34,973 nucleotides of DNA, taken from the NCBI GenBank assembly GCA_051294375.1, contig CM119265.1:25119866-25154838 (forward strand), in the 5' to 3' direction. A program made the translations under genes and the position numbers. The notes below the pieces were generated by a model. It was not told where the DNA came from. It did not search any database and saw only the letters and a list, made by a program, of their open reading frames with translations. The stretch comes from Paraspadella gotoi. Lineage: Eukaryota > Animalia > Chaetognatha. Below, one piece after another: positions 3,428 to 34,973 of this stretch. Position 1 is the stretch's first letter. Each line of letters opens with the position of its first letter.

Positions 3428-3462
3428 TGATGAACGATTGGTGGATTTTAGTCCACCATACA

Positions 3463-3474: not shown

Positions 3475-3635
3475 ATAGGGAGAAGTCTTGTTGCGTCTCT
3501 TCAGTGAATTGTTGTTGTTGGTGGAAAGTTCGTCACCAAGTTGAGGCATGTCGCCTGATGTGTTGTGTGCGGAAAGTGCATCGCCAGGTTGAGGCATGTC
3601 GCCTGAAAGTGTTGTTGTTGCTGTTGTGTTCGGAA

Positions 3636-3649
3636 GTCGGGGCTCACCA
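3636..3649 (-). promoter_or_regulatory. Primer-binding site complementary to the tRNA-Trp 3' end
   Basis: Minus strand reads TGGTGA(G)CCCCGAC, versus the tRNA-Trp PBS TGGTGACCCCGAC known from avian retroviruses. One inserted base. Confidence 0.8.
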
Positions 3650-3702
3650 ATGAAGAGACAGTAATTATTGATAAGTGTTAATGACAGAAACGTTCAATAT
3701 AA

Positions 3703-3778
3703 GCAGTCCCTGAGCTTCGGAATCAGGCTGTAACACCATGTTACAGGCGGGTTAAGCGCCCCGTCCCTCTTAACTGCC
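3703..3778 (-). ncRNA. Twister-ribozyme-like motif (family A, 5' LTR)
   Basis: Near-identical second copy with single-base indels. Predicted cut between 3754 and 3753. Confidence 0.68.
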
Positions 3779-3960
3779 AGACGACCACCGGGCTAGAACC
3801 CCGGACCTTTGGGTTGGGAGCGAATGTCTTGCCTCCGGCACAATGGCCGAACGTGAATGAACGATTGGTGGATTTTAGTCCACCATATAAGCCATTTTCC
3901 TTAACTTAGGACAAAATAAGCATCCAGCTATCAGTTTTACGATTGATCACACGTATCATT

Positions 3961-4263
3961 TGAAATTGGTAGAACCAATATAAAAATTATCCATTCATTT
4001 AATAAATAAGCTATCTTGCCCCTGACTTTGGACAGGCTTTGGTGGTTTAAGGCCTCCATCACTCTTACAATATAATGACATAGCAGGTCCCTGCAAGCGT
4101 TCAATCAAGACTCTCTCACAGTCTCGTTTATTCACTCCCAGAGTACCTGGCTTCCCTATCAATGAAGTGGTATACAATTTTAAAGAATGTTTCAATTATA
4201 AGGAAAGACCACTCCCTTAAGTATTTGATCGGGGAATACTATATTGTACTCCGCACTAGCATC
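3961..4263 (+). repeat. Unclassified dispersed repeat (~300 bp) in intron 2
   Basis: Reverse complement occurs at 32135-32456 and partially at 31921-32110. A more diverged relative lies near 25440-25520. Confidence 0.8.
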
Positions 4264-4929
4264 TTTTAAAAATTAGTATGATAATAAAAACAAGAACGGA
4301 GATTCCAATGTGTGTGGCGCCGAAAGGACCTTCTAATTACGTGTATTTTTGACATATACAGCATCGGAAAACGTCTTTTATTCTTGATATTCTTTAAAAA
4401 CAAAAGGTGTCGCTGACAGTCTCTTAGATTTGAGGTTTCTTCCCGCTCAGCAAAAATGACAAAAGAACAACCAAATAAATAGGGCAGTGAATTTTGGGTT
4501 AGATTTGTAGATTTGTAGGGTGATCACGTGACTTTAAAGTTTACAAGTATTATATATATGCACATTAAAGGTCTTACGGTGCCTTACCCTCTTACCAAAT
4601 ATGAACTTAATTGATAAAGCATTAAGCAAGTTATAAATATTTTTAACATAAGTGGACAGATCGATGGACAGACATACCAACCAACTATCTGACAGACCGA
4701 CCGAAAAGTGACTTATAAAGTTTAAATAGTAAGAGATATTTATTAGCTTTTGTTTAAATTTTTCAAACTGCTCCAACCATCCAATAACGAGTAATTGGGG
4801 ATTAATGCTCAGGTGGGACGGACAGACAGACGGACAGACGGACTCATGTTTAATTATCTATGTACCGTGCATTTTGTATAAATTACTTAATTAAAAGTCA
4901 TTCACAAACCATTTCATACATATATTTAG

Positions 4930-5126
4930 GCTCAAACAGAAGGAAAAGGATATTCACAAACTTAAAAAGGATTCCGGCGAGTCGTTCGCAATAAAACAGT
5001 GCACGAGCAATCTTTGCAACACACCGATCATGAACAAGAAGTCTGCCGGGCTGATGGTGGCCGTCGTTATTGTCGTCCTTCTAGATGTTCTCATCATCAT
5101 CGCAGTCATCGTATTAATATTTCTTG
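4930..5126 (+). CDS. Exon 3: C-terminal CxxxxCN motif plus transmembrane helix
   Basis: Acceptor tttAG at 4929. Encodes LKQKEKDIHKLKKDSGESFAIKQCTSNLCNTPIMNKKSAGLMVAVVIVVLLDVLIIIAVIVLIFL. Donor G|GTAAAC at 5127, phase 1. Confidence 0.88.
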
Positions 5127-6101
5127 GTAAACACTTTCTTATTATTTTTAATGAAATAGTAATATGTTAATCGGTATATACTATATGGTATTTTTAAACT
5201 TAGATCTAAACTTCTGACTAACCTTAGCGATAGAACTAGTTGATTTAGTAAATAGCGAAAAAGGCGTATTCTAACAATTATTAACTTTCTAAGGCGTTGT
5301 TTTTCATTTTGTTCAATTTTTTTTTCCGAAAAAATGAAGAGAAAGAAAAATATTAAAAAATGAACGTTAAAAAATAAAATTTAAAAGTTAAAAAAAAAAA
5401 CAAAAAAAAAAACAAAAACTAAACCTTAAAACATAAGCTTAGGAGCCGACGTCGTTCTTAGAGATCGAGGTGGAGATTTTCGTTCAAATCTGACGACCAC
5501 ATTTTTTTCTCTTGTCAAATCATCAACATCTTGATATCAAACAAGCCAGAACAAATAGACTGCTTCTGGACGAAAAAATTTTCTATCTCTGATTTTATAT
5601 AGAAATGAAAGGGATTTTTTTCCTAGAAAATGATATAAACATGACTGAGGTATGTTCCTGTTCAACAAATGAGGTCCAATTTTGGAATCCTTTGGCAAAG
5701 TGTCTGAAGGGCACTCAAAATTTTTCTTTACTTTATTTAGTTATTTTAATATAATACAATCATGGTAAAGTGAATTAGTCCATTTTGGTGAAATTTTTAT
5801 TTAAAGTAAAAGTAAAAGAGGAGCTGACGATCGAAATTCTAAGAGTTTTCAACCGGGAGTCAGATTCGGGAAAAATCTTCTATGGCAAAAATCTTCCAAA
5901 AAAGGGGTGGATTTTCCGAAGATTTTGGTTAATATTTTGTATATTTATGGTCGGATTTTTTTAAAACTTAATATTAACAATATTGCCATCATTCTACCTT
6001 GGCCGGTATAAGAATATATTAAAAAAAACCTCTGGCTTTGTTCGTCAGAGCTTAGTCCTAATAAGCTAGAAAGGTCAGGCTCTCTTTTCTTCTCCTTCAA
6101 G

Positions 6102-6553
6102 GCAAAATAACGGCTGACTTTAGCAAGAAAGAAGAAGGCGGTGAGGATAATGCCAACGCAAACGCCAGTAAGAACTTTTTCTCCAAGACTGAGAAGCTGA
6201 GGTGGAAGCTGCCGACAAAACCAACTCAGAGTTCTTTGAATCAAAACAAGAACGGGATTGAGGGGAAACCAAAGCCCGCCGTTGCTGAGGAGTCGAAAGA
6301 ACGCACCCCGATGACGGCAAATGTTCCTTATGGGGGAAATGATTCTAGGATGGGACAAGGCCCTTTGACCGGACAAGTCCCAATTGCGGGACATGATCCT
6401 AGAATGGAACAAGGCCCTTTGACCGGACATGGCCCGATAGGCGGACTTGAACCGAGGATGGGACAAGGCCCTTTGACCAGACACGGCCCGATGATGGAAC
6501 ACAGCCCAGCGAACCAGGGCAAGGCCGTAGAGGAAGCGGAGGGTCAGCCATAA
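6102..6553 (+). CDS. Exon 4: cytoplasmic tail with three 18-aa repeats; TAA stop
   Basis: Polypyrimidine tract 6080-6098 and AG at 6100-6101. The phase-1 join gives G-KITADFSKKEEGG..., in frame with ORF 6236..6553. 54-nt repeat starts at 6350, 6404 and 6458 (RMGQGPLTG/RMEQGPLTG/RMGQGPLTR). Confidence 0.85.
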
Positions 6554-6978
6554 ATGGATTGTGAAGCGAGTTCGAGAGTTAAGAAAAAAAATAAGAAGTC
6601 CTGGAAATTTTTTTTTTTTTTTTTGAAATCGCTTTGGCCCACGATGAAAGATCAACTCGAACATCATTCAATTGCTCCATTCAAACTAATTTACTTAATG
6701 TTATAGTTTTCATTTGATTACAATATTTTCATTGTGCCTTAAATTGTGAATATTTTGTATTACATGAGGATATGATTTTCGTGCGGGTAGAAATGTGAGT
6801 GAAAATCGTTTTTAGTGAAAATGAGGGTCACTTTTACAATTTTATTAAAAAAATTGTTTTAATGTTCATCCAAGTCGTTTTGATATCCTTCTATGGAGAA
6901 GGGGCTAAGTGTGCTGAAGAGGGGGAGATGGAGATGAGGGGAGAGGGAGGAAGGGAGGAGGAGGAGAGGGAGGAGGAG

Positions 6979-12333: not shown

Positions 12334-12882
12334 TTTTCTGGTTTTTTTCCAGAAAATATTTGAGGTTACGTAGAAGTTCAAAAACATCAAGCTGAGCTGA
12401 GTTGCCATGGAGATATCGTGTGGCACCGTCGCTCTCTACGATAAAGCGAGAAACGTTTTTTGGTACATATTGATATTGCCCTGGTTAAATACGTATATAC
12501 TGTTTATTAAACTGATCTCAAATCTACATACATGATCAGAGTTTCTATGTTGTTGTCGCGTTTCCCACCGTGATAACGACGATTCCACTGCATTTAGCAA
12601 CTGCCATCAATACTGGAACCGCAATGGATCTGGAAACCTAAATTGCTCCTGGAACCGCTTTCCTTCATTAAGTCTCACGTCAGCGGTTTTTTTTCTTTTT
12701 CGTCTGCGTTGCCATTTTTTTTTGGTTTTTTTTTTNNNNNNNNNNNNNNNNNNNNNNNNNNNNNNNNNNNNNNNNNNNNNNNNNNNNNNNNNNNNNNNNN
12801 NNNNNNNNNNNNNNNNNNNNNNNNNNNNNNNNNNNNNNNNNNNNNNNNNNNNNNNNNNNNNNNNNNNNNNNNNNNNNNNNNN

Positions 12883-12964
12883 TGAGGGGAAAGGTTTCTG
12901 AGGGGAAAGGTTTCTGAGGGGAGGGGTTTCTGAGGGGAAAGGTTTCTGAGGGGAAAGGTTTCTG
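12883..12964. repeat. 16-bp minisatellite (TTTCTGAGGGGAAAGG)n
   Basis: Tandem units next to the gap, at the duplication junction. Confidence 0.92.
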
Positions 12965-13572
12965 GAAAGAGGACCTTCTAATTAACGTGTATTTTTGACA
13001 TATACAGCATCGGGAAACGTCTTTTATTCTTGATATTCTTTTAAAAAACAAAAGGTTGGCTGCAGTCTCTTAGATTTTGAGGTTTCTTCCCGCTAAGCAA
13101 AAATGACAAAGGAACAACCAAATAAATAGGGCAGTGAATTTTTGGGTTAGATTTGTAGATTTGTAGGGTGATCACGTGACTTTAAAGTTTACAAGTATTA
13201 TATATAGCACATTAAAGGTCTTACGGTGCCTTACCCTCTTACCAAATATGAATTAATTGATAAAGCATTAAGCAAGTTATAAATATTTTTAACATAAGTG
13301 ACAGATCGATGGACAGACATACCAACCAACTATCTGACAGACCGACGAGAAAAGTGACTTATAAGTTTAAATAGTAATGAGATATTTATTAGCTTTTGTT
13401 TAAAATTTTCAAACTGCTCCAACCATCCAAAAAGAGTTTTGGGGATTAATGCCTCAGGTGGGACGGACAGACAGACGGACAGACGGACTCATGTTTAATT
13501 ATCTATGTACCGTGCATTTTGTATAAATTACTAATTAAAAGTCATTCACAAACCATTCATACATATATTTAG

Positions 13573-15198
13573 GCTCAAACAGAAGGAAAAGGAATATTCA
13601 CAAACTTAAAAAGGATTCCGGCGAGTCGTTCGCAATAAACAGTGCACGAGCAATCTTTGCAACACACCGATCAATGAACAAGAAGTCTGCCGGGCTGATG
13701 GTGCCGTCGTTATTGTCGTCCTTCTAGATGTTCTCATCATCATCGCAGCATCGTATTAATATTTCCTTGGTAAACACTTTCTTATTATTTTTAATGAAAT
13801 AGTAATATGTTAATCGGTATTACTATATGGTATTATTTTTAAACTTAGATCTAAACTTCTGGACTAACCTTAGCGATAGAACTTGTTATTTAGTAAATAG
13901 CGAAAAAGGCGTATTCTAACCAATTGATTACTTTCTAAGGCGTTGTTTTCATTTTGTTCAATTTTTTTTTTTCCGAAAAAATGAAGAGAAGAAAAATATT
14001 AAAAAATGAACGTTAAAAAATTAAAATTTAAAAGTTAAAAAAAAACAAAAAAAAAAACAAAAACTAACCTTAAAACATAGCTTAGGAGCCGACGGCGTTC
14101 TTAGAGATCGAGGTGGAGATTTTCGTTCAAATCTGACGACCACATTTTTTTTTCTCTTGTCAAATCATCAACATCTTGATATCAAACAAGCCAGAACAAA
14201 TAGACTGCTTCTGGACGAAAAAATTTTCTATCTCTGATTATATAGAAATGAAAGGATTTTTTCCTAGAAAATGATATAAACATGACTGAGGTATGTTCCT
14301 GTTCAACAATGAGGTCCAATTTTGGAATCCCTTTGCAAAGTGTCTGAAGGGCACTCAAATTTTTCTTTACTTTATTTAGTTATTTTAATATATACAATCA
14401 TGGTAAAGTGAATTAGTCCATTTGGTGAAATTTTTATTTAAGTAAAAGTAAAAGAGGAGCTGACGATCGAAATTCTAAGAGTTTTCAACCGGAGTCAGAT
14501 TCGGGAAAAATCCTTCTATTTGGCAAAAAATCTTCCAAAAAAAGGGTGGATTTCCGAAGATTTTTGGTTAAATATTTTGTATATTTTGGTCGGATTTTTT
14601 TAAAAATTAATATTAACAATATTTGCCATCATTTACCTTGGCCGGTATAAGAATATATTAAAAAAAACCTCTGGCTTTGTTCGTCAGAGCTTAGTCCTAA
14701 TAAGCTAGAAAGGGTCAGGCTCTCTTTTCTTCTCCTTCAGGCAAAATAACGGCTGATTTAGCAAGAAAGAAGGAAGGCGGTGAGGATAATGCCAACGCAA
14801 ACGCCAGTAAGAACTTTTTTCTCAAGACTGAGAGCTGAGGTGGAGCTGCCGACAAAACCAACTCAGAGTTCTTTGAATCAAAACAAGAACGGGATTGAGG
14901 GAAACCAAAGCTCCGCCGTTGCTGAGGAGTCGAAGAACGCACCCCGATGACGGCAAATGTTCCTTTATGGGGGAAATTGATTCTAGGATGGGACAAGGCC
15001 TTGACCGGACAAGTCCAAATTGTGGCGGGACATGATCCTAGAATGGAACAAGGCCCTTTGACCGGGACATGGCCCGGATAGGCGCGGACTTGAACCGAGG
15101 ATGGGACAAGGCCCTTGACCAGACACGGCCCGATGATGGAACACAGCCCAGCGAAACCAGGGCAAGGCCGGTTAGAGGAAGCGGAGGGTCAGCCATAA
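13573..15198 (+). pseudogene. Partial duplicate of the membrane-protein gene (exon 3 at 13573-13769, exon 4 at 14741-15198), frameshifted, lacking exons 1-2
   Basis: Same exon and splice-site sequences as 4930-5126 and 6102-6553 with many 1-nt indels. These may be sequencing errors rather than true decay. Confidence 0.6.
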
Positions 15199-15677
15199 AT
15201 GGATTGTGAAGCGAGTTCGAGAGTTAAGAAAAAATTAAGAAGTCCTGGAAATTTTTTTTTTTTTTTTTGAAATCGCTTTTGGCCCCACGATGAAAGATCA
15301 ACTCGAACATCATTCAATTTGCCTCCATTCAAACTAATTATACTAATGTTATAGTTTTCATTTGATTACAATATTTTCATATGTGCCTTAAATTGGTGAA
15401 TATTTTGTATTACATGAGGATATGATTTCGTGCGGTAGAAATGTGGAGTGAAAATCGTTTTTTAGTGAAAATGAGGGTCACTTTTACAATTTTATTAAAA
15501 AAAAATTTTTTTTTTTTAATGTTCATCCAAGTCGTTTGATATCCTTCTATGGAGAAGGGGCTAAGTGTGCCTGAAGAGGGGATATGGAGATGAGGGGAGG
15601 GGAGGAAGGGAGGAGGAGGAGAGGGAGGAGGAGGAGAGCGAAGAGAGAGAGAGAGAGAGGGAGAGAGAGAGGAGGAG

Positions 15678-15713
<36 letters not shown>

Positions 15714-16547
15714 GAGGAAAGAAAAAAAACGAACCGGAAAAAAAAAAGTGGAATGCCAGTTTTTTTGAAGTGATCCTTGAAGACAGATTGTCGTCGGTGA
15801 AGTGAAAAGAATCGGATTATTCCACAAATCAGTTTTCACAATCTCCTCTTCTTTGCCTTTCACTTTGGGGAATTTTCTTCTTTTTTTTTGAGAGAGAGAG
15901 AAAAAACATCTTTCTTCTTAGGAAAATCTTTCGTTGACAGACAGAGACGGATGTACAGACGGACCGGACGGACTGACAGAAAAATAAGTTGAATTGAATC
16001 GTTGGAGGAAAACGAATTTGTGAGAGACTGAGGGACAAGAGATGAAAGAGACGTTCAAAGTCTGTGACAGATCGATTCACATCACAACTTTGATGACAGC
16101 AAACAACGCCGGATCTGCGCGCGGGGCATTTAGCGAGTAAGAACGAATCAGATAATAAGTTATGGTTATATATTCAATTTCTTTTTTATTTTTATTTTAC
16201 AATTTTTATATTTCAACCTTTTTTTTTGTTGGTAGTTGTTTTTAATTCTGGTGATAATACAGATAATACAGGACGGACGGACAGACTGACATACAGGACG
16301 GAAATCATTTGTTTGGCGTAATTAGTAGAATTTGAATATAACTAATTTGACATAATCTAAGTGATTTACCGACAAGATTTTTGGAGTGGGACCGACTGAC
16401 CGGACAAAGGAATAATGGAGTCGGAGACGGAGTCTTGCTGTAAACAGATTCGGCAGAAAACCAATTCGAAAATTTGGATTGTGGAAAGTCGAAAGTGAAA
16501 GATTTCTTTCTTTCTTTCTTTCTTCTTTCTTTCTTTCTTTCTTCTTT

Positions 16548-16583
<36 letters not shown>

Positions 16584-17052
16584 GTCTTTCTTTTCTCTCT
16601 CCTCTCTCTCTCTCTCTCTCATTAAAATTCGATCTCCCTTTAAACGTTCGAAACGGGGTGAAGAAATGTGTCAGGGCGAGACGAAGCGCGAAGTGGTAAG
16701 GGTTTCGAGCTGACGAGGTAAGTTTCACGCCGAGAATCCGTCAAGGAGAGGAAAAGGTGAGTTAAAGAGAGAGAGTAAAAAGTTTTAGGTGTTCACTTTT
16801 TTTAAGATCACTCTCAAAAATGTATTATTGTAAAATTTGACAAAGGGGAGATGAGACAGATTCATAAGAAAAATATGTTAATAATAATATTTGTTTCATT
16901 TATGATTTTCCACTTCATTTTTTATTTCTGACTTGACAGAAAGCTTATTCTTTCTATTCTATTCTATTCTATTATATTCTATTATTTCTTTCCTCTTTCT
17001 TTTCTTTACGTTTCTTTCTTTTTTTATTTTAAGTTAATTTATTTTATTTACT

Positions 17053-17087
<35 letters not shown>

Positions 17088-18356
17088 TTTTTTATTTTTT
17101 TATTATTTTATTTTTATTTATTTATTTATTTCTTTCTTTCTTTCTTTCCTTTCTTTCTTTCTTTCTTTCTTTCTTTTTCTTTTTTATCTATCTTCTTTTT
17201 TTCTTTCTTTCTTTCCCGAAACGAATCCACGTCCCCCCATAAACGTGCAGTTAAAAACGGAGACCTCGCAAACATAACAGAATCAATTGTGCGAATTATT
17301 TTCTTTCGGAATTTCTCTCACGTCGCCCCCCCCACGGAAAAAAAAGGTAAAAAAGAGTAAAAAGAGAGAGTCGTGCTAAAAATAGAACAAGTTACTCGGG
17401 TGCATAAAAAAAGTAAAGAAAGTTGCTCTGGGCTTTCAAGAGAACAAAAATTCTGCTGCTTTATTTTAAATACGTTAAACTAAATGTTGTATTAATTTAT
17501 TTGGTTTTTAATCAAAAAGACTATACGCGCAGGAAATGATTTAAGCTCGGTAAAAAAAAACTAATCCTCAGTCTTTGCGAGACTTTGTCTCATTAAAAAG
17601 AATTAAATAAAAAATCAAAAAACAAAAGAAAACAAAAAAAAGCTGAAATCAGGTCGGGTAAACTAGAGTCGAGTTTCAGAATAACAAATGAAACAAATTC
17701 CCATTAAATTTAAAAAGGAAAACACAGAAAAAAAAATAATAAAAAAAAAAAGATGAGAGAAAATTCCATTTAGGACCGAAAGAAAAATTCCATTAAAAAC
17801 GTCCTTGAGATGAAGCGGCGCGGGGCGTTTCGGTCCGTTGACCACCCTTAGGGCTCTCGGGCATTTGCAGACCCGGAGATATTCCACTGTTTACGACCGT
17901 CAGCAGCCTTTGTTTGAGAGGCAACCATCTGCTTTTCTGTTTGCAATTGATCAAGGCATTCTTCGATCGACCGATGAATCTTGACCGAAAATACGTAGTA
18001 TTGTAAAAATACAAATTAAAAAAAATAAATGAGATAATAAGTCAAAATACTAAAACAATTTATATCTTTCTTTTTTTAAATATTATATTTTTTTAATTCA
18101 TCACGCGATAAATCTTTTGAGGACCGAAATACAACTCTTTTTTTTTAGTAAGAATCGAGTTTAAGATAAAATTATGCTAATGATTTTGATTTGAATAAAA
18201 TATTCTACTCACATTACAACCTTCAGTCGATTACAATTCCCAAACACTTTCTGCTGTTTCGAGTAGCCAAAAAACTGTTAATTCTTGAAACTTTAGTTGT
18301 TCCTTTCGACCTTCTTTTTTAAAGACATTACGCTCACTCTCTCTCTCTCTCTTCTC

Positions 18357-18407
<51 letters not shown>

Positions 18408-18638
18408 GCTTTTTCAAGGCGGCGCATTCCTTTAGAAAAAGAAGAAGCACCTTTTTTCCCCCTTTTTTTTTATTCTGAGAAGAAAAGGGAGAATTTATTT
18501 AAAATTGTTTTCTTTCTATTATCTTATTATTTCAATATTAGTACATAAAAATATATCATTATATAATCAGTTAATTCAGACGTTCAAAGTGACTCTTTTT
18601 AAGGTTGCTCCCCGCTGGCCAATCCCAAGCCTACATAG

Positions 18639-18899
18639 GGAGAGCTTTGGAGATCTTTGGAGAGGTTGGAGAGGTCTGGAGAGGTCTGGAGAGGTCTGGG
18701 TGGTCTGGAAGAGGTCTGGAGAGCCGTCTGGATGGTTCTGGAGACGATTCTGGAGTGGTTTAGATGACTGGGAGTGGTCTGGATGAGGTCTTGGAGAGGT
18801 CTGAGTGGTCTGGAGAGGTCTGGAGATGTCTGGAGTGGTCTGGAGAGGTTCTGGAGAGGTCTGGAGTGGTCTGGAGAGGTTTGGAGAGCGTTTTGGAGT
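18639..18899. repeat. 10-bp minisatellite (GGTCTGGAGA)n, longer version in copy 2
   Basis: Roughly twice the length of 9918-10050 between the same flanks. Confidence 0.9.
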
Positions 18900-20182
18900 A
18901 GTTCAAAACCCGCTACAAGATTATCCTGTAAGTTAAATGGAGGATATTCGCCATCGCACAAATCGTTCCATCAGTTGGTCACGTTCTGTGAAGCATCCCA
19001 TCGGGCTTCTTATTGCGTATGTGCATGTGTCCATGTGAAAGAAGTCGACACAGTGGTGACTTCATCACATTGTTGCCAACAATTTATTGGTTAAATCATC
19101 GTGAGGACCATCGGCGGGTTCGGGCTCCAACGGGTTTTAGATTACCCTCATGAATAATTAATTTTCTTTAGTTAGAAAGCATAAAAAAAAAATTATCATG
19201 CCGTAAAAATAGCCGTAAAAAATTCAATTTATATTTTAATTTTCAGCTATTTATGTCAATTTCCATTAGATTGTGGACCAAAACATTGAGGGAGTAGTTT
19301 GGTATGTTTGATTATCAAAAAAACATTATTCGAAATGTTCTTCCGTGTCCCATCCATTAAAAAACTGCAGCAGCAGTAAAAGTTGGCTGGCCGCAGCAAA
19401 GCCAAACCCCCCCCAAAAAAAAAACCAACAAAAAACTCACCAACTTGATCGACGATTTTCGGATTTTCTTCAAGTCGGGCCTGTCCACCCCCCCCCCTGG
19501 CCTCCCCCCCCACTTAAAAAAAAATGGAGATTGGTTTCGGTCGGCGCAATTTAAAAACAAACAAAACGCCAGCGCCGCCTCTCGGTTGAGAGAAGAGGGT
19601 AAGAATATGAGAGAAAAAAAAACGGTAAAACAAAGTTTTGAGGAAAGATTTTTAATCCGATTTTCAACTTTCGTTTTTGGGAGAAGAATAAAACGACTTT
19701 TGTTTATTTAATTTTTTTTGAAGAAAAGAAAGAAGAGTGGAAGGAGAGGAAAGATTGACAGTCACGATGGAGGATGATGACAATGGACAACCATGACGAA
19801 CGATGCACGACGACGACGACGATGCACGACAACGACGACGATGACGACAACGACGACGATGACGACAACGACGACACGATGACGACCACGGACGATGAAG
19901 AAAACGACAAGCGACAGATGTCGAAGATCGGGACGATTTCAAAGAAAAGAGCGAATATTGCACAATGACGAACCAGGACGCACGTAAGAAGCACGATTGA
20001 TAAACGAGAATGCGACCAGACGACAATAAAATGAGCAACGAAAGGGACGACGATTATGACGACGTGTGATGACGACGACGCACGACGAGGCACGAATTCA
20101 ACATGATGAAGCGAAAAGGCGCGAGAACTCAGGCGACGACGATAGGTCGATAACAGTGAGATGGAATGGAGGCCCAAACCGA

Positions 20183-20237
<55 letters not shown>

Positions 20238-21589
20238 GTGCCGATTATTTCTAGTGGTATTTATGACGAATCGCTCTCTGAAGCATTTTAGAAAAGGGAA
20301 AGGAAAAAATGGAGAGATCGAGAGAGAGAGAGAGAGACTGAGAGAGAGAGATAAAGAGAGAGAGAGAAGAGAAGAGAGATGAGAGAGAGAGAGACCGCGC
20401 TTTGTTCTCGTGGTCGATGAGATGAGTCGGAGAAGGGGCGAAGGGCGAGCAAGGAGTTCGTTTAAGAATTGGGCGAGTGGAAGCAACGCGCCGGGGGAAA
20501 GCAAAGTAGGACAAGAACACGAGTGGATTGAGCCAGCTGGAGCATGAGGAAAAGCCACGTCAGGCCAAATAAGTCGTGAACTCTTAGTTTAGCCGATAGG
20601 ATCGGTACTAACACGCAGGCTAACTGAGCAGTGAAGAGATCTCTCTTACAAAAAGAGCCAGGATGTAGTGAAAAGGTGATGAAAAATTAGGAAACATGAG
20701 TAGAATGCGAGTATTTCAGAGGAGCATAGACAGAAGCGGAGTACAGAAGCGGACGAAGGGAAAGCTACATGCGGAAGGGGGCTAAATTGGAGGTACAAGG
20801 GGCGATGCGAGTACCGTAAAGCGGCCAACTGACGGAGCGAAGGGGAGGTGGAGATGGAGGGGGTGTCGAAGTCGCGAGAACAGCAAGAAGCGCAAATGAC
20901 TTGAAGATTTGGTCTCAGCAGGCGACGTTTCTCCGTTTCCGGTCGTCGTCGTCGTCGTCTTTGCTGTCACTCGTCGTCATCTTCGTCGTCGTCGGCGTTG
21001 CTGTCGTCGTCTTCGTCGTCCATCAGTCGTTCGTATTCGTTGTTCCTCTTCGTCGTCGCTGTCGTTGTCGTCGTCGTCTTCGTCGTTCGTCAATGTCTTT
21101 GTCTTTTTCGTAGTCGTCGTCTTCGTCATCTTCGTCGTAGTCACCTCGTTGTTTTCGTCGGTCGTCCTGTATCGTCTTCGTCGTCGACGTCGTTTTCTTT
21201 CGTCGTCTTTCGTCGTCGACTAATATGGCGACCGCCGCCTGAATTGTTAATCGGGCAATTTACTTCGCCTCAGACTTTTCGAAACCCATTTAACATTTAG
21301 CTGTCGTCGTCGTCGTTCGTGTCCGTCGTTCGTCGTCGTCGTCGTCGTTATTCTGTTTTCTGGTTTTTTTCCAGAAAATATTTGAGGTTACGTAGGAAGG
21401 TTCAAAAACATCTAAGCTGAAGCTGAGTTGCCATGGGAACGATATCGTGTGGGCACCGTCGCTCTCTACGATTAAAGCCGAGAAACGTTTTTTGGGTACA
21501 TATTGATATTGCCCTGGTTAAAATACGATATATTATGGCAAACAGCAGGCGTTAGCCTGTGATGCCCATTTGGGATGGGGCATCTCACT

Positions 21590-21675
21590 GTTGGCTTTGG
21601 GGGCTTCCGACCCTCAGTGACGCAATCCAGTCACTGGCGCTGGTTACCCGTAGGACCCGGTCTCGCTTTGCCAAC
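21590..21675 (-). ncRNA. Twister-ribozyme-like motif, P5-type (family B, 3' LTR)
   Basis: Minus: GUUGGC AAA GCGA GA CCG GGU CC UACG GG UAA CCAGC GC C AGUGAC UGGAUUGC GUCACU GA GGG U CGG AA GC CCC CAAA GCCAAC. P5, P3, P4, T1 (CGG/CCG) and T2 pair. Predicted cut 21646/21645. Confidence 0.72.
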
Positions 21676-22018
21676 GCAGAGGAAGTCATTAGCGACTGTG
21701 AGATGGAACACTACGCCTGGATGGTGTGTTCCCCCTCTGAGCCAATGGATTTAGCGCTAACGCATGCTGTGGACGTGACGGCGGTAGTGAAATATACCAC
21801 CAACAGGATCCCCGGACCAAGACATCACCTCAGGTTCCTCAAGCCTGAGAGGGTCTGACAGACTGTCACCATAGTGGGAAGAGAGAGAGCAGAGCGCTTC
21901 GAGTTGTGGGGCGCATAGGCGTTTGTACGTAAGCGTACCCCAGGGGCATAGGCGTTTGTCGTAGGCGTACCCGATTTTACGATCGGCAGGGACCATCGCG
22001 TTTGCGTAGCGTACCCTG

Positions 22019-22053
22019 AGAAGGTGCGTGTTCGATAGATAGAGGCTTCACCA
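22019..22053 (-). promoter_or_regulatory. Degenerate tRNA-Trp-type PBS with similarity extending into the T-arm
   Basis: Plus strand AGAAGGTGCGTGTTCGA...TTCACCA resembles the tRNA-Trp 3' half AGAAGGTTGCGTGTTCRAATCACGTCGGGGTCACCA. It lies 1 nt from the LTR. Confidence 0.6.
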
Positions 22054-22105
22054 CTTATGCAACAGCAGGGTTGCTGTCGATGCCCATTGGGATGGGCATC
22101 TCACT

Positions 22106-22197
22106 GTTGGCTTTGGGGCGCTTCAAACACCTCAGTGACGACACTCCAAGTCACTTGGCGCGACGTTACCCTAGGACCGGTCTCGCACTTTGCCAAC
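22106..22197 (-). ncRNA. Twister-ribozyme-like motif (family B, 5' LTR; noisy)
   Basis: Same layout, with P2 UCGC/GCGA, P3 AGUGAC/GUCACU and P5 GUUGGC/GCCAAC. P4 and its loop are corrupted by errors or mutation. Predicted cut 22168/22167. Confidence 0.55.
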
Positions 22198-22704
22198 GCA
22201 GACGGGAAGTCATATAGGACTGTGGATGGCAACACTACGCTGGGATGGTGCTGTTCCCCCTCTGAGCCAATGGATTTTAGGACTGAACGATGGTGGACGT
22301 GAGGCGTGTTTGGAATATACCACCACAAATATACTGGTTTTATTAAACTGATCTCAAATCTACATACATGATCAGTAGTTTCTATGTTGTTGTTCGCCGC
22401 TTTCCCACCGTTTGATAAACGACGATTTCCACTGCATTTAGCAAACTGCCATCAATACTTGGAACCGCAATGGATCTGGAAACTAAAATTGCTCCTGGAA
22501 CCGCTTCCTTCATTAAGTCTCACGTCAGCGGTTTTTTCTTTTTTCGTCTGCGTTGCCATTTTTTTGGTTTTTTTAAAGCGTTTTTGTTTTTTTTTTGCGT
22601 TTTTTGTGTTTTTTTTGTTTTTTGCCACGATTTCTCAGCTTTCTCCCAGGATATTGTTTCGCCCAACTTGAAAACCCGCGGGCGTTCGGGCAGGCGGGGA
22701 TAAG

Positions 22705-22935
22705 GTTTCTAGCGGTAAAAGGTTTCTGAGAGGGTAAGGTTTCTGAGGGAGGGGGTTTCTTGAGGGGGAAGGTTTCTGAGGGAAAAGGTTATATGAGGGA
22801 AAGGTTTCTGAGGGGAAAGGTTTCTGAGGGGAAAGATTTCTGAGGGGGAAAGGTTTCTGAGGCGGTAAGCGTTTCTAGGGGAAGGNNNNNNNNNNNNNNN
22901 NNNNNNNNNNTTTCTGAGGGGAAAGGTTTCTGAGG
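22705..22935. repeat. 16-bp minisatellite (TTTCTGAGGGGAAAGG)n spanning a gap
   Basis: Degenerate tandem units on both sides of the N-run 22886-22910. Confidence 0.9.
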
Positions 22936-23009
22936 AGAAAGGGAAAGACGAGGGGATTGGAAAGTCAAACGAAAGGGCGCGGGGGGAGGGGAATAATAGG
23001 GATGTTAAG

Positions 23010-23947
23010 GGGAGAAGGAGCTTCTGAGCAAAAAACCTCGGGATATCCAATTTCAAAATCCAAATTCAAATTGCGTTTTGAAATCGATTTGAGTTCAATA
23101 GCGAACCAAGTTTTTTTTTATTGTTGTTTTTTTGAGCTTCACCAGGTTTTTGGGCCAAAAGCTTTTTGCTTTTTCTTTTTTACTTTTTACTTTTTAGTCG
23201 TTTGCTTCTTTTTGGCCATTTTTATGCTTCGCTACCACTTTCCTTTCTCAGACATCCATTTCGTTCCTTTTCTCTCTTCCTTTATTTCAATTCTTTAAAT
23301 GCCAATATCTAATTCGTTAGAATTGTTTATTTCGTCGATTCGTATCGTAAGTAACTTTTCCCCCCTCGAGAATTAAAATTTGAAAATACTACCGACTAAT
23401 AATTAACGACGACTTCTAAGCGACTACAGTCGAGTCACTCCACACGGAACTACTAGGAGCCGGAGAAGGAGCTTGCTGAGCAAAAAACCTCGGATAATCC
23501 AATGTTTCAAACTCCAAATTCAAATTGCGTTGTTGAAATCGATTTGAGAGTTTCAATAGGCGAAACCAAGTTTTTTTTTATTGTTGTTTTTTGAGCTTCA
23601 CCAGGTTTTATGGGCCCTAAAAGCTTTTTCTTTTTTCTTTTTTACTTTTACTTGTTTAGTCGATTTGCTTCTTGGCCATTTTTCATGCTTCGAACGCGAT
23701 ACCACTTTCCTCTTCTCAGAACATCCATTTCGTTCTTTCTACTCCTTCCTTATATTCAATTCTTATAAATCATCCCAATCATCTAATATTCGTTCCAGAA
23801 TGTTTCCATTTCTCCGCTCCGCCGATTCGCTATCTAAAGTAAACTTTTCCCCCTCGGAGAATCTTAAAATTGAAAAACTATCCGAACTTAATATAATTAA
23901 CGACGATACTTCTAAGCGACTACAGTCGAGGTCACTCCACACGCGAA
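23010..23947. repeat. Local tandem duplication (~23010-23449 and ~23462-23947)
   Basis: Both copies start GGAGAAGGAGCTT(G)CTGAGCAAAAAACCTCGG and end GTCACTCCACAC. They differ mainly by indels; likely an assembly artefact. Confidence 0.85.
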
Positions 23948-25954: not shown

Positions 25955-27673
25955 AACAACAACAAACGGATCAAACGACCGAACTTACCTAAGGGTTCCT
26001 TACCTAATTAAAAATTAATTGGCTTTCAATTTAATTGTTTTTAATCGCGTTGAAACGCTTTTCCGTCTGTCTGTCTTTTGGTCTGTCTGTCGGTCCGTAG
26101 ATAGTAAGCTTACAAAGATAAAAGTGTTACGTAAAAAGGTTTTGGCGTTTGAATTATGCGGCTTCGGAGGAAGAAAATAGAAGATAGAAAAGAGAAAGAA
26201 AGAAAGATAGAAAGAAATATAAAGGAAGAAAGAAAGATAGAAATAAACAAGGAAAGAAAGAAATATATTATATTATATTGTAACATCGTGATTATTTTAA
26301 TCGGGATTAAACGACTTAAAGAGACTTATAGAGTTTTATCGATAATTAGTGTAGCGAAGTGAATAAAAAAAAAGTGGTAAGAACTTTTATTTTATTTTAC
26401 GATTCGTACATGTTTTGATCAAATAATTAATTATTTAATTAATTTAATGATTCAATTTAGAAACTAAAGTTGTAAAATTATTTCTTATTTATTTATCGTA
26501 TAAGTCCGCATTTTTTCTCCCTTTTTTTTTCTCTTTTTTTGGGGGGCATCTGTCGCGCTATTTCCTCCCGATATCTTTTTCATCATCTCTGTCACCATCT
26601 GTTCCCTGTCACCATTATCTCTGTCATCAACTTCCATTCAATTCCATCACTTCTCTCTTTCGATGTGCACTAAGAGAGATCGGATTTTTTTTCTCTTCAG
26701 CAAAGATGCGAATTCAACATCGGACGCTCGCGGTCAAGTAGGATGAAGCGGACAGGGTGAAAGAGGAGGATAGGGAGGAAGAGACCGAGACGAGAAGAGA
26801 GAAGAGAGAGCAGGAGAGAGATGATAGAGAGAGACGGAGAGAGAGAGAGAGAGAGAAGGAAGCAGCTGACGAGAGAATGTCTAAATTTTAGATACTCCTT
26901 GTTTTCCCAATTTTTATTTTAAACCTGGTTTTAAAAAGCTTTTGTTTCTTTGATTTTAATATTATTTTTTGAAATTCCCAAACCTTTTGTTTTTTTCATT
27001 AGCCTCAACTTTCCATTTCTTTGCATTGTCCGCTCGTCGCTCATCTTCTTTCATTCTCACTCCCTTAAATTACGATTCAAACATCGAGAAATGAAATGCC
27101 GTGGAATTACCCGAGGGAACCTAGAAATCTCATTCAAAGACGACGACGGCGACGACTGACGACGACGACTGACGACGACGACACAATCGACGACTGACGA
27201 CGACGATTCTTGGTTCCGTCCAGAAAATGGAAAGCCATAACCATTTTCGCCCTTAAAACCCTGGCAGGAACAACGGAAGTAGTTTTTATACGAAAGCCCA
27301 GCAGCACAAATAGCAGCTGCCGCCTCCTCTGCCGCCGCAGCCGCCGCCAGCCGCCGCCGCGGGCACTTGCGAGACGTTACTCCTCATCTATTGCCGCTGT
27401 TTATCTTTTCAACTTTGGAATCGATTCGAGATCTGCCGTCTCACGTATCTTCTTATTCTCGGCGCGCTGTCATTTGTCACAATAGTTTTTTATGCACTTC
27501 CCGACCATGTGCTGTCACTTCTTAATCTCCTTTCATCTCTCGCGTTGTCATTGTCACTTAATTTTTGTCCATTCACTTCCACCATTGCTGTCACCTTACT
27601 TAAATCTCCGTGTTTTGTCCTCGCCGCTGTCATTGTCACATAGATTTTTATCACTTCCATCTGCGTTGCTCTT

Positions 27674-28278
27674 CACTTCTTAATTTTCTTTCATCTCTCA
27701 TCGCTGTCCATGTTTCAAACGGTGTAGTCTTTTTGTTGTTATGGCCGCAACCAAGTCATAACCACTCCTTTTTATCGTTCGGTTCTGCACTTCATATCAG
27801 TTTCGCCGACGATAATTATCTCCTTGTCTATCAGTTTTTAAAGATAGTTTTCGTTTAACCATAAATAATCTCCTGTCTTGATCACTTTCTAGCTGTTCGA
27901 TTTTCTCATCTCTCTTTTTTCGTTTCACCGTTTCACCAACATTATCTATTTTTTATCACCCTCAACCTCTCTGTCACAACGTATCTCTTTTAATCGTGAA
28001 ACAATGACAACCGTCGGTGCATGTCACACCACGGGTGGACTTTCGTCAGAAAAGGGTATAGAACTGAAATGTGAAGCCTTGCTTCATCCGCGCGAGTACT
28101 TGCCTTAGCGAACATCCTCCGCGCCCTTCATGCCGCCGTTTCGTTTCCCTTTCTGCTCTGGTTCTCTCTCAATTTGTGTATCAACCTTACCCTAAGGCAT
28201 CCAATTAACCCCTTCGAGCGTGGGCTAACTCCTCTCTGCTCCCACCTCTCTCTTCTCTCTGGACCTCGTCTCTCCTCG

Positions 28279-28309
<31 letters not shown>

Positions 28310-29054
28310 CTGCCAACCAAGCACGTTTCGCAGGCTGTTAACATCGACTGCCTCGCGATCCTTCCGTCCGCCCCTATCTCCTCGATTTACTTACCCTGAC
28401 CCACCCAACCCCCGCTATTCTCGCCCCCCCAAAAAGACGCGAAATGCGGCGGAATCGCGCGCGAAACCGCGAGTCATTAATTCCCGATTGGTTCCATCAA
28501 GCGACGCCTCTTCTTACGGCGAGAAGACAGGGCGCCGATTTTGCGCGTTCGCGCAACTCTTGTAATGGGCAGAAAAATACGGTAGAGAGGTAGGTAGCAT
28601 TAGTGGTGAGGTGATGCGATTGGGTGTATAGAGTGGTGGGCGCGCCATGGTTGTGCGAATATACGGGTGGACAAGTGGCGATGCTGGTTGAAGGGTGTAT
28701 AGGAGTGATACACGTGGGCGTGAACATTTGACTCGCTGAATGGTCTGTTAGAGTGGCATAGGGTCTGTGAATTTTAAACGCGATGGTGTAAATGAGTAGA
28801 GTCGCCTAATATACACAAAAAAAAAGCACCTGTAATGAAAAATTGTGAACACTTGATAAACGAACGTTTGAGATCGGAGTTGTTGAATGGTGGTTGAGAG
28901 AACGTCGGGTGTTATGTAGTTATATGAATCGTGATGGAGAAAGACGACGGAGTTCGTGAAATCGAGATGAAAGCGTGAAGTCAGTGGTGAGAAGCGACGA
29001 TGCAAAACCTAAAGAAAGCGGTGTAGCACACCTGGTGGAGGACGGGTGGTTAAT
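27674..29054 (+). repeat. Block duplicated at 33616-34973
   Basis: Colinear match, e.g. CCTCGCGATCCTTCCGTCCGCCCCTATC and GAGAAGCGACGATGCAAAA, with indel-dominated differences. Confidence 0.9.
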
Positions 29055-29946
29055 TTAGTGTTCGATCGCTTAAACGGAATCGTGACAGGGGGGCGGGAGT
29101 TGATTGCCGTCGCAAATGGTCTGCCGGTATAATGTCAGAGGTGAGGAGGGGAGGAGGTGAGGAGGTGCGATTGAGGTCTGGAGGTCAACGGGTCAGGTGG
29201 GGGGAAAGAGACGAATAACAGTGAATGGATTTTTATCTCGGTCGTGGGATGGCATCGAAATGGCAATATGACGCGCCGCAGATAGGTATGGACCGTCGAC
29301 CCGAGTTGGCATGCCAGTGAGACCGAAATGGCATGCCCATCTCGACCGTACGTTTGGCGTGCCAGTCGCCGCCACAAAATGCTTGAGCGTTCAACGATGA
29401 TGGCTTTGCTAGTCGAACCGAGATTGATATGTCAGACTCGATCCCAGACTAACACTCGAGCATGCCAGATCGGTGACACCGTCAGACATGACTCGCTTCC
29501 ATTCATCAATGATGGCTTGCCAGTCGAACCGAAATGCACTCGTCGTCAAGTCAACCGAGAATGGGCATGCACCTCGAACCTGGATCGGTCTCGCACCTCA
29601 ATCAATGAACCTAACTCTTCGACTCTTTCAAAATGAATATAAACCCGTTTCGATATTCGGTCATTTTTCTCGTTAAACTGTCGACGATAAACGTTCACGC
29701 TGTCACCGTATCTCGCTATAAACGTTCTCGTTACAAGCGGATGAGTTCTGTTATCGAAGAGCAAGAGAGAAGGAATAGGCAATAACCCAAAGATTCGAGA
29801 TTAAAGAGTGAGATTTATAGAGGAAGAATAAGAAGAATTCTACTCTCTATCTCTCTCCTCTCTTCTCTCTCTTCTCTCTCTCTTCTCTCTCTCTCTCTCT
29901 TCCTTTTCTGCCGACAAAACGCAGAGAATGGGGAAAATTTTCTCAG

Positions 29947-30001
<55 letters not shown>

Positions 30002-31920
30002 AGAGGAGAGAGCCAATATGGATTTACTGTTTGGAATTGTTGTGGATCTGGAGGTTCTTACGATCGCTTTTATTGCGCGTTTCCGATCTGAATTTTATGA
30101 TTGATCAAAATTCTTTCCATGGCCCCTTTATGGTGTAAGGTCCCGATCGAATCAATACATCGTGGAACACTACGTCCGTATACCATTTATTCTACAAATA
30201 TTATAAATGAATAAATTTTTGTTAATTTCGTTGGGTGTACTACATTACTTTCATTAAGACAAGAAATCAAGTTAGAAAGTATTTGCCAAAATTTTCTTTT
30301 ACATTATTTTTTCCATAACGATCCTTTCATAGGCCATCTTTGTAATGGGGTTGTCAGAAGTTTGATTTTGGGAACCTTCCCAAATGAAACTTCATACATT
30401 TCTGAGAAAACTTTGCAATGGAGCAAACATGTTCTAAAATGGCGAGACGCGCTCGGTAATTAATTTTGAAATGTTATTTATAGATAAGAAATGTCAAAAT
30501 TCAGAGTTGTCAAAGTAGTCTTACACAAAGTATAATGTTTTATTTCTCAATATTTGATATAAGTGAGTAAAAATTGAGAAAAAAACCTTAAAAAATCATT
30601 ATCATCATCATTATCCGATATGTAAATTTCAGTTTTTGCTTAAACTTTTTGTGCTCTATCCAGTATCATATTAAAAAAACTTGAAATATAAAAAAAATTG
30701 ACAATATTAATAATTTTACTTATGGTTCGGAACATATTTTGCAAAAAAAAAAAGAAAAAAATTTAACAAAATAACTAATACCAATAATGGATTTGTCTCA
30801 TGCCTGTTTCCCATTTTAAAAATTTGAAAATTTGGTCGGCGACCTCGGCTTTCATGAAAAAGCGTAATAGGTAAATCGCTTTTTGCTAAATCGCTTAAGC
30901 GATTTACTTACCCCCGAAAATGTACCAATTTTGGGCCCGCTCCCTTTTTTTTTTTTTCAATTTTTTTTTTTTTTTCCGTCTTGTAACTTTTGTTACCTAC
31001 AACGAGGATTTGTCTCTTACTTTTTCTACTATGAGAATTTCCCTTTACTTTCTATAGAAATTTGCTCTTATGTCTGGCACCCCACTAGTTCTTACTTGCA
31101 TCGCTTTTACAAACCACAAATAAGCAAAGCGGTTTTGATCCTGTTTTGGTCTTACCATATAAACAGATGGCTCCACAAACAAAAGAGCATACCTTTCTAA
31201 AAACAAAAGAACAGTCCCATTTAAATTTCTTTAGTATTTGTGCACCTATTCTACTAGAGGCTTTACAAAGCAGGAGGTCTTTTCGTAAGACGAAGGAACA
31301 TTCATTTGCTCTTCTGTCCTGCACCCACTAGATCTTCACTTGCACCTGCTCTTCAACCAAAATAGAAATAGAAAATAGAAATAGAAAAAAAAAGAATAAT
31401 ATTGCTCACCAAGATGTGCACTCTGCTAGTTTCCGATCAACGTTGGACTGACTTTACGATTCTTATTTAAATAACGTTCAGTTTTTGCGAACAGGATGGC
31501 GCCGAAGTTATTTATCAACAAACATTTGGCGACGGAGGAACAGGAGATAAAAATGTTTGTTTCCATAAAAACGAGGTGATGAAAATTAATTTCTTTAATT
31601 CGAGACTTAAAATATAGAAAACGGAATATAAAAGTCAATTAACAATTAAACCCCAACGGCGAGTTAAAACGTGAACTTTCTAGAGGGCAACGACTTTTCT
31701 CTCTCTAAAAACATTTGCTAAAGTTAAAATAAGACGGATACCAATTGTCCCCCTTTTTCCCCCTTCTTCCGACTGAATCAGTGTTTAAAACTTTTCCCTA
31801 TATATGGGCCGTCTCGATCGCGATGTCGTCCGCCGGTGACTCCGCGGACGTTAACTTTCATTTCGCGCGGAACGTCACGCATCGGCCGCCAACGGAGCTG
31901 TCAAAAACAGAAATATACCG

Positions 31921-32456
31921 GTTCACTGGGAGTGAATATAATGAGACTCGTGAAAGAGTCTTGATAGAAAAGCTTGCAGAAACTCTGCTGATATTCATTA
32001 TCTTGTAAGTGTGATGGAGGCGCGTAAACCGACAAAGGCCTGTCCAAAGTCAACGAAGTAGCTTATTTAATTAAATGAACGGATAATTTATATATGTTGT
32101 ACCAATTTCATAAAAATTCACCTCCTTGTATTTTGATGCTAGTGCGGGGAGTACAATATAGTATTTCACCCGATTCTAATACTTAAGGGAGTGCGGTCTT
32201 TTCAGTACAAATGGAAAGCATTCTTTGAAATATTACTTACCACTTCATTGATAGGGAAGCCAGCGTTCACTGAGTGAAATAAATGAGTACTGTGAAAAGA
32301 GTCTGATGAAAGCTGGTGCAGAAAACCTGCTATGTATTATCTTGTAAGTGTGTGCATGGAGGCCTTAACCACCAAAAAGCCTGTCACAAGTCAGGGACAA
32401 GATCAGCTTATTAGGTAAGATGAATGGATAATTTTATTATTGTTGTACCAATTTCA
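31921..32456 (-). repeat. Two adjacent inverted copies of the 3961-4263 repeat
   Basis: GATGCTAGTGCGG..AGTACAATATAGTATT..TACCACTTCATTGATAGGGAAGCCAG..TACCAATTTCA is the reverse complement of 3961-4263. Confidence 0.8.
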
Positions 32457-33615: not shown

Positions 33616-34973
33616 CACTTCTTAATCTTCTTTCATCTCTCACGCTGTCATTTTCAAATTGTTATCTTTTTGTTGTTATCACAGTCATAACTTTATCCTT
33701 TTTTATACTTCTTCTGTCACTGTCATATCATTTCCACATAATTATCTCCTTTTATCAGTTTTAAAATAGTTTTTTACATAAATATCTCCTTCTATCACTC
33801 TAGCTGTCATTTTCTCATCTCTCTTTTTTCGTTTCACCGTTTCACCAACATTATCTTTTTTATCACCCTCACCGTCTCAGTCACAACGTTATCTCTTTTT
33901 ATCGTGAACAATGACAACCGTCGGTGATGTCACAACGGGTGGACTTCGTAGAAAAGGGTATAGAACTGAAATGTAAGCCTTGCTTTCATCCCGCGCGAAC
34001 TTGCCTTAGCGAACATGCCTCCGCGCCTTCATGCCGCCTTTCTTTCCCTTTCTCTCTTTCTCTCCATTTGTTATCACCTTACCTAAAGCATCAATTAACC
34101 CCGTTCGACGTGGCTACTNNNNNNNNNNNNNNNNNNNNNNNNNNNNNNNNNNNNNNNNNNNNNNNNNNNNNNNNNNNNNNNNNNNNNNNNNNNNNNNNNN
34201 NNNNNNNNNNNNNNNNNNNNNNNNNNNNNNNNNNNNNNNNNNNNNNNNNNNNNNNNNNNNNNNNNNNNNNNNNNNNNNNNNNNNNNNNNNNNNNNNNNNN
34301 NNNNNNNNNNNNNNNNNNTCGCAGGCTTTTAACATCGAATGCCTCGCGATCCTTCCGTCCGCCCCTATCCTCCTCATTTACTTACCCTGACCCACCCAAC
34401 CCCCGCTATTCTCGCCCCCCAAAAAGGAGCGAAATCGGGATCGCGCGCGAACCGGAGTCATAATTCCGATTGGTTCCATCAACGACGCCCTTTTACGGCG
34501 AGAGACGTGGACGCCGATTTTGCGGTTCGGAACTCTGACGGGGAGAAAAATAGGTAGAGGGTAGGTAGAGTAGTGGTGGGTGATACGATTGGGTGGTTAT
34601 TAGAGTGGTGGGCGCGCCAGAGTTGTTGCGAATATAGGGTGAAAGTTGCGATGCTGGTTGAAAGGGTGATACGAGTGATACAGTGGCGTGATTGAATTTT
34701 GAATGGTTAGAGTGATAGGGTGTGAATTTTAAACGACGATGGGTTTAAATGATAGAGTCGCTAATATAAAGCCTGATGAAAATTGTGAACATTGATAAAG
34801 AACGTGAGATGGAGTTGTGAATGGTGGTGGAGAACGTGTGATGTAATTATGAATCGTGATGGAGAAAGTCCGACGGAGTTGTGAATTGAGATGAAAGCGT
34901 GAATCATGGTGAGAAGCGACGATGCAAAATAAAAGAAAGCGGGTGAGGACTGGTGAGGACGGGTGAGGTTAAT
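33616..34973 (+). repeat. Second copy of 27674-29054 (gap-flanked, runs off the window end)
   Basis: Same colinear match as 27674-29054; contains gap 34119-34318. Confidence 0.9.

Follow-up and report, generated by a model that had tools for sequence, protein, structure and literature searches.

The 34,973-nucleotide (nt) stretch of contig CM119265.1 of the chaetognath Paraspadella gotoi (assembly GCA_051294375.1, positions 25,119,866 to 25,154,838 of the forward strand), hereafter the window, is repeat-rich, eukaryotic-looking draft sequence with six runs of N. On its minus strand, at 21534-22327, lies a non-coding element with long terminal repeats (LTRs), here called family B, which consists of a 5' LTR, a 2-nt spacer, a primer-binding site (PBS), an internal part and a 3' LTR. 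The element has an empty allele and a high copy number, and its LTRs carry, on the strand of the PBS, the layout of a twister ribozyme. A first-pass annotation, made from the letters alone, had placed the element at 21533-22327; the element stands, and the LTR end is corrected to 21534.

Each LTR measures about 272 bp and runs from TG to TA. The 5' LTR (22056-22327, minus strand) and the 3' LTR (21534-21805, minus strand) were delimited by alignment with each other, and the loose ends of short-read contigs, whose agreement falls beyond TG and TA, disagree beyond both termini. These contigs come from four (X1, X5, X8 and X9) of nine public runs of one organism that contain the neighbouring stretch 2650-6900, none of the nine being listed as RNA; they were aligned to 21380-22540, with 2603, 704, 97 and 155 contigs in the four runs, the flanks being without cover in X8 and X9. 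The alignment of the two LTRs contains 245 matches, 9 substitutions and 37 gap columns, with a spectrum of insertions and deletions resembling that of the flanks; since most of the differences are gap columns, as in the error-rich flanks, the true divergence between the LTRs is likely to be small. The internal region (21806-22055, minus strand) is non-coding, has a weak polypurine tract (PPT) and contains three repeat copies of about 20-33 nt (21922-22016, minus strand), each able to pair locally. No Pfam family was matched by the three open reading frames (ORFs) over the element.

Insertion site and copy number

The segment 4325-12732 of the window is present again at 12970-22574, an 8-kb duplication joined at N runs, and the element sits in the second copy, with its empty site preserved in the other. 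The duplication probably stems from two alleles, or from a raw long read, having been assembled one behind the other. Beside the insert, the second copy shows 23 extra letters, 1 missing letter and 6 substitutions in 376 columns of the flank alignment, which is what a poorly polished long read would give. The empty site carries a single ATAT (12495-12498), and comparison with it reveals ATAT on both sides of the insert, at 21530-21533 and at 22329-22332, the latter set off by one extra letter at 22328. A 4-bp target-site duplication (TSD) is therefore likely, although it is read from one site and assumes two one-letter insertions in a read that is rich in them; a 5-bp duplication was rejected as conflicting with the LTR ends read in the contigs. 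The empty allele is also present in two samples, because X1 and X5 each have one contig that bypasses the element, at the depth of the flanks. As none of the contigs listed for the four runs over 21380-22540 joins flank and element, and the empty allele is seen, the insertion is probably polymorphic and recent.

The summed contig depth of X1 and X5, a rough guide rather than a copy number, amounts to 2,200-10,700 times that of the flank over the LTRs and to 130-1,150 times over the internal part, which points to full copies in the hundreds and LTRs in the thousands. In long contigs, pieces of the LTR stand among unrelated flanking sequences, and the greater depth of the LTRs than of the internal part would fit many solo LTRs. 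Being shorter than 1 kb, non-coding and numerous, with two LTRs, a PBS and a TSD, family B has the features of a terminal-repeat retrotransposon in miniature (TRIM). Exact LTR or core motifs were found in none of the metagenome contigs, viral contigs and prokaryote genomes searched.

The primer-binding site

The PBS is complementary to tRNA-Trp and consists of two blocks on the minus strand. The acceptor-end block (22043-22053), 2 nt past the LTR, is complementary to the 3' end of the tRNA; a contig end in X8 reads the family B PBS, with its loose end at 22038, and its first ten letters are identical to those of family A, a further family in the window. The second block (22019-22035) is complementary to the variable loop and the T arm, and the same split design is seen in family A. 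We regard the PBS as bipartite because in both A and B the stretch opposite the 3' strand of the T stem is left out. In a comparison that used tRNA-Trp genes of metagenomes, not the host's own tRNA, the family B PBS region was the best local match to tRNA-Trp among 556 pieces of the window. The three metagenome loci containing both primer blocks were, all three, tRNA-Trp(CCA) genes; the T-arm block alone is generic, with 19 of 26 viral loci lying within tRNA genes, none of them for Trp. A full-length antisense copy of the tRNA at the PBS was rejected, the match to the 5' half being the element's own internal repeat, and only the 3' half is accepted. In the literature listed for the PBS motif, the matches were primers.

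A predicted twister ribozyme in the LTRs

Both LTRs carry a twister-type fold in the P5 permutation, with a P3 helix, on the minus strand. In the 3' LTR copy (21590-21675; predicted cut between 21646 and 21645), pairing is complete in P5 (6/6), P3 (7/7) and the pseudoknots T1 (3/3) and T2 (2/2), and reaches 3/4 in P2, with one extra letter skipped, and 3/4 in P4; the core letters UAA, GA and AAGC are all in place. The 5' LTR copy (22106-22197; predicted cut between 22168 and 22167) has a garbled loop L4 in this read and, as written, pairs 2/3 in T1 and 2/4 in P4; contig depth is zero at 22121-22159 in the four runs. The L4 reading of the 3' LTR lies in the deepest contig bin, with no substitution at a frequency of at least 10%, and the contigs lack the surplus single letters that this copy has in P1 and P2. 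A descriptor of the P5 permutation, composed after the sequences had been seen and run on the window and on dinucleotide shuffles, matched the 3' LTR of family B and a third family, C; it had no match in 10.4 and 4.8 Mb of shuffled sequence (150 window and 3000 element shuffles, respectively). It found nothing on the plus strand, so that the placement of twister and PBS on one strand, as first annotated, is borne out. In the rice twister, exhaustive mutagenesis showed that T1 and T2 are sensitive to mutation and accept compensated pairs, and that mismatches in P1, P2 and P4 are often tolerated (PMC5113685). The family B LTRs are predicted to contain a self-cleaving twister that would cut site-specifically between U and A of UAA.

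In all three families, the P1 segment lying between T1' and UAA is self-complementary and of even length, 8 nt in B (22169-22176, minus strand, where the loose ends of all four runs agree) and 6 nt in A and C, and leaves no room for a normal hairpin loop; in the Rfam P5 consensus, P1 is a hairpin with a loop and P3 is missing. Folded on itself, the segment falls short of an intramolecular stem, with 1-2 bp, as against 6-8 bp in a duplex of two copies, for which the calculated energies are -11.0 (B), -8.3 (A) and -9.1 (C) kcal/mol. For independent families, the chance of finding three palindromic 4-nt centres is about 3e-4, a figure that carries less weight if the families are related. In amphibian hammerheads whose stem has a single pair and whose tetraloop is palindromic, cleavage is far better in the dimer (PMC7229834). 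By this model, cutting in family B likely needs the pairing of two LTR copies, and a circle with one copy would stay stable. No natural twister that is an obligate dimer was found reported in the literature searched.

From cut site to cut site, the predicted monomer, or circle unit (21646-22167, minus strand), measures 522 nt as written, in line with the first estimate of about 522 nt, and has 56% GC; given the surplus letters of this read, the true length is probably somewhat smaller. Of two hairpins annotated downstream of the twister, the 9-bp one is confirmed (22079-22100, also at about 21561-21584, minus strand, where the contigs are free of the extra letters in the 3' copy). The other is not supported as written, resting on the letter 22067, which the contigs read otherwise; contig ends support a different 6-bp stem in its place.

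Families A, B and C

The claim that B is a second, sequence-distinct family with LTR-borne P5-type twisters and a PBS for tRNA-Trp holds up, the best blastn piece shared by LTR B and LTR A being 18 nt long (E 0.12). The stems of the 3' LTR twister differ from those of A with the pairings of P5, P3 and T1 kept in full, as had been noted. The pseudoknot letters differ among A, B and C with the partner altered to match: for T1, A has CCG/CGG, B has CGG/CCG and C has CCA/UGG, and family C also departs from the others in T2, with AC/GU. The first annotation took this for independent sequences retaining the same pairings. The compensated pseudoknot letters bear out the retention, but independence is too strong a word: the layout and the type of PBS are common to A and B, as are two short boxes close to the 5' end of the LTR, and deep common descent is therefore as likely as convergence. 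The contigs show many other genomic copies, and the window contains one more twister family, C.

Family A (3222-3890, minus strand) has a clear PPT, TG...CA ends, a bipartite Trp PBS and a predicted unit of 425 nt. Family C (3961-4263, minus strand, and 31920-32456, plus strand, the latter consisting of one partial and one full copy in tandem) is a repeat of about 300-325 bp with a P5 twister layout and a palindromic P1. It gives an Rfam Twister-P5 match of 25.8 bits; no PBS is seen in it, and its copies may be solo LTRs or a Penelope-like tail.

Promoter signals

A box-A-like motif of the RNA polymerase III (Pol III) type lies at position 58 of the family B LTR (22259-22269, also 21734-21744, minus strand), with a degenerate box-B-like motif 34-35 nt downstream. 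The combined score of the two boxes is reached by 7/400 and 27/400 shuffles in family B and by 5/400 and 20/400 in family A; on the opposite strands, the corresponding numbers range from 41 to 321 of 400 (321 and 96 for family B). The Pol III boxes A and B of the family B LTR are suggestive at most. With a profile built from 16 eukaryotic tRNAs, only two good matches were obtained in the window, one in each family A LTR (E 8.8e-5 and 0.0027), where a tRNA-derived block (3821-3791 and 3406-3366, minus strand) stands directly upstream of the twister. Judged by its sequence, family A is a Helenus-type TRIM with a predicted twister in addition. Family B has no match to the profile, and its best alignment among the 16 tRNAs is not significant. 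No run of four T occurs on the RNA strand of the A or B element. A 5S-derived promoter of the kind found in Ajax and Cassandra was considered for B and rejected, as 14/500 and 228/500 shuffles reach its plus-strand score; Rfam 5S likewise has no match in the element.

Relation to known elements

The closest parallel is with the plant LTR retrozymes, which are non-coding, have a self-cleaving motif in each LTR (predicted in family B) and a PBS after the 5' LTR, and share with family B the 4-bp TSD, solo LTRs, a unit of 500-700 nt, a GC content of about 55% and a proposed Gypsy-type helper (PMC4918200, PMC7761336). The plant elements combine a type III hammerhead with tRNA-Met, whereas family B combines a twister in the P5 permutation with tRNA-Trp; it also differs from them in its weak PPT, its TG...TA ends and a monomer that, in this copy, is not unusually self-paired. 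No Rfam hammerhead family matched the family B element at E up to 10. With the hammerhead and tRNA-Met features failing, family B is therefore no LTR retrozyme strictly speaking: its anatomy is that of a TRIM, and it would resemble a plant LTR retrozyme in its working, with cleavage and circles as the predicted steps. More generally, retrozymes have been divided into LTR types with type III hammerheads, mainly of plants, and non-LTR types with type I hammerheads, of animals (bioRxiv 10.64898/2026.07.22.740005); the word twister does not occur in the available part of that preprint of July 2026.

Among the TRIMs, Helenus (TRIMp3) is likewise shorter than 1 kb and includes animal families with 4-bp TSDs, Gypsy-type PBSs, that for Trp among them, and thousands of LTRs; unlike family B, it has no described ribozyme, and family B has only weak box A/B motifs (PMC10886601). 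A search of the available Helenus supplement, in which line breaks can hide matches, returned none for six motifs of A and B and eight for six twister-loop motifs, none of the eight having a twister layout by eye. As for the ribozyme itself, family B shares with the type-P5 twister (RF02684; RF03160 for P1) the strand order, the letters UAA, GA and AAGC, T1 and T2, and the P3 and P5 helices; the Rfam consensus has a looped P1 and no P3, whereas family B has a loop-less palindrome as P1, a P3 and sub-threshold scores.

The non-LTR retrozymes of metazoans resemble family B in a weak closing helix, a palindromic tetraloop that works better in a dimer, and small circles; they differ in lacking LTRs, PBS and PPT, in their type I hammerheads and in their Penelope-like origin (PMC7229834; bioRxiv 10.64898/2026.07.22.740005). 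In Perere-3 of Schistosoma mansoni, twister T-variants also serve a retrotransposon, but an autonomous non-LTR one, with a single 5' ribozyme, a P1 formed with the flank and no circle (PMC8501958). Finally, the CsRn1 lineage of Ty3/Gypsy elements shares the tRNA-Trp PBS and the typical 4-bp TSD; unlike family B, its members are autonomous and coding, and they are a candidate helper only, none being seen in the window (PMC3630058). A Trp PBS with a 4-bp TSD fits both animal Gypsy elements and animal Helenus families (PMC3630058, PMC10886601).

In the mostly open-access literature searched, including the available parts of PMC3587641, PMC6765202, PMC13725137 and bioRxiv 10.1101/2022.07.19.500677, no LTR element was reported to have a twister in its LTRs. 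New, too, are the loop-less palindromic P1 in three families and the tRNA-derived promoter block in the family A LTR, to which the weaker box motifs of B may correspond.

A possible life cycle and its alternatives

With moderate confidence, we view family B as a high-copy, non-coding LTR mini-retrotransposon, present here in a recent copy, whose LTRs would be cut by twisters through paired P1 segments and whose circularised unit would be reverse-transcribed by a helper from a tRNA-Trp primer. Transcription would begin in the 5' LTR, within its first 50-130 nt or so, and a tRNA-type Pol III promoter may drive it. A transcript spanning both LTRs could then form two domain-swapped twisters, one cutting each LTR; such a double twister is proposed because P1 is poor as a hairpin in one copy and has 6-8 bp between copies, and double hammerheads do act in amphibian retrozymes (PMC7229834). 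A monomeric circle with one copy of P1 would be poorly cleaved and hence stable. Cutting in each LTR removes the terminal repeat needed for strand transfer, so that the ligated circle, by analogy with the plant retrozymes, would be the likely template for reverse transcription. Reverse transcriptase and integrase might be supplied by a CsRn1-like Gypsy element, as the Trp PBS and the 4-bp TSD suggest. A bolder formulation, which we put forward only tentatively and hold to be possible though somewhat doubtful, extends this cycle to a diversified class of Pol III-driven twister LTR retrozymes, in which the palindromic P1 would fire only in the two-LTR precursor, the circles would be stable, a CsRn1-like reverse transcriptase would be employed and the tRNA-Trp primer would be bipartite.

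Several observations weigh against this interpretation. The PPT is weak (GGGGA at 21813-21809, 3 nt from the 3' LTR; 8 purines in the 20 nt examined), and no helper is seen, there being no coding element in the window. The covariance-model search, proposed as a check in the first-pass annotation, gave a divided answer: twister-P1 (RF03160) is the top Rfam family in the element (21639-21595, minus strand, over P3, P4 and L4), but its score of 17.1 bits (E 1.4) is far below the gathering threshold of 67.2, and Twister-P5 (RF02684) has no match there; neither Rfam twister model has the P5-open, P3-bearing shape seen here. The descriptor recovers two of the seven candidate cores in the window. The P2 pair beside GA, which is U-A in the Rfam P5 consensus, is C.A in the 3' LTR and the contig ends and U-A in one reading of the 5' LTR only. 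One loose-end consensus tail in X1 (20 contigs, median length 13) diverges from the window just past P1, so that T1' and P2' may vary among copies. The requirement for a dimer is weakened by reports that P1 is not essential for twister activity (PMC5113685; PMC8501958). The claim of a highly structured RNA is not supported: the monomer, in this error-rich copy, has z -0.30, with 37/100 shuffles folding as well, and the twister cores fold no better than shuffles (z -0.3 to -0.9).

The C.A at the first P2 pair, together with the 3-bp P4, the 2-bp P1 of the monomer, the weak Rfam score and the unstructured monomer, speaks for an ordinary Helenus-like TRIM, possibly driven by Pol III and using normal R-region strand transfer, in which the twister of B is inherited but slow or dead; Helenus-type TRIMs, for which no ribozyme is described, reach thousands of LTRs (PMC10886601). 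Yet both pseudoknots and UAA, GA and AAGC have been kept in B though its stems share no sequence with A, L4 lies in the deepest, unvaried contig bin, and mismatches in P2 and P4 are often tolerated (PMC5113685), so that we consider such a TRIM unlikely. Rather less probable still is an active twister that works as a monomer or does no more than trim a linear transcript at its ends, with no stable circle as template. The twisters at the 5' ends of RTE/Perere-3 non-LTR elements do process linear RNAs (PMC8501958), and P1 is dispensable; however, cuts in both LTRs would leave no terminal repeat, the argument from which a circle was proposed for plant retrozymes (PMC4918200), and the palindromic P1 in three families would go unexplained.

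Family B could also be an internal-deletion derivative of an autonomous CsRn1-like Gypsy element whose own LTRs carry the twister. The long bipartite Trp PBS and the 4-bp TSD fit that lineage, and the LTR depth, so much greater than the internal depth, could include LTRs attached to different internal sequences. We nevertheless deem this improbable, as no coding remnant is present (no Pfam family for the three ORFs), and in plant retrozymes and in Helenus the LTRs have no sequence in common with those of the helpers (PMC4918200, PMC10886601). An assembly artefact, or a chance fold in an error-rich long read, might be suspected from the indel-rich stretch, from the filled site being seen only in the window and from the duplicated segment being joined by N runs, but it is largely refuted by the high depth of the family in the short-read contigs of four samples; the TSD brackets the insert, and 15 Mb of shuffles hold no descriptor match, which leaves this explanation with hardly any credit.

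Other repeats in the window

Two tandem copies of about 450-480 bp with 83% identity (23011-23943) may reflect assembly doubling, and a dispersed or doubled repeat with 82-83% identity (27463-29054 and 33616-34973) starts with a tandem unit of 77-78 bp. Tandem repeats of 16-17 bp (22696-22942 and 12883-12964) lie next to N runs where the duplicated segment ends, and the long inverted repeat at 29843-30012, made of (CT)n and (GA)n arms, draws spurious microRNA matches in Rfam. An exon-like open frame (6065-6553, plus strand) has an 18-residue repeat with a weak Cementoin-type Pfam match (E 1e-6), and a protein search found no homologue of it. Two protein searches with the ORFs of the window returned nothing, and Pfam gave one repeat-type match among 11 ORFs.

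Implications

If the proposed cycle is true, the circle-based life cycle would be independent of the class of ribozyme, a further genomic role, the second to be defined, would be added for twister ribozymes, and the retrozymes would be linked to TRIMs that have Pol III promoters. The palindromic P1 would offer a simple, testable switch to explain how a circle avoids recutting itself, and a family as young, polymorphic and numerous as this one makes the cycle directly testable.

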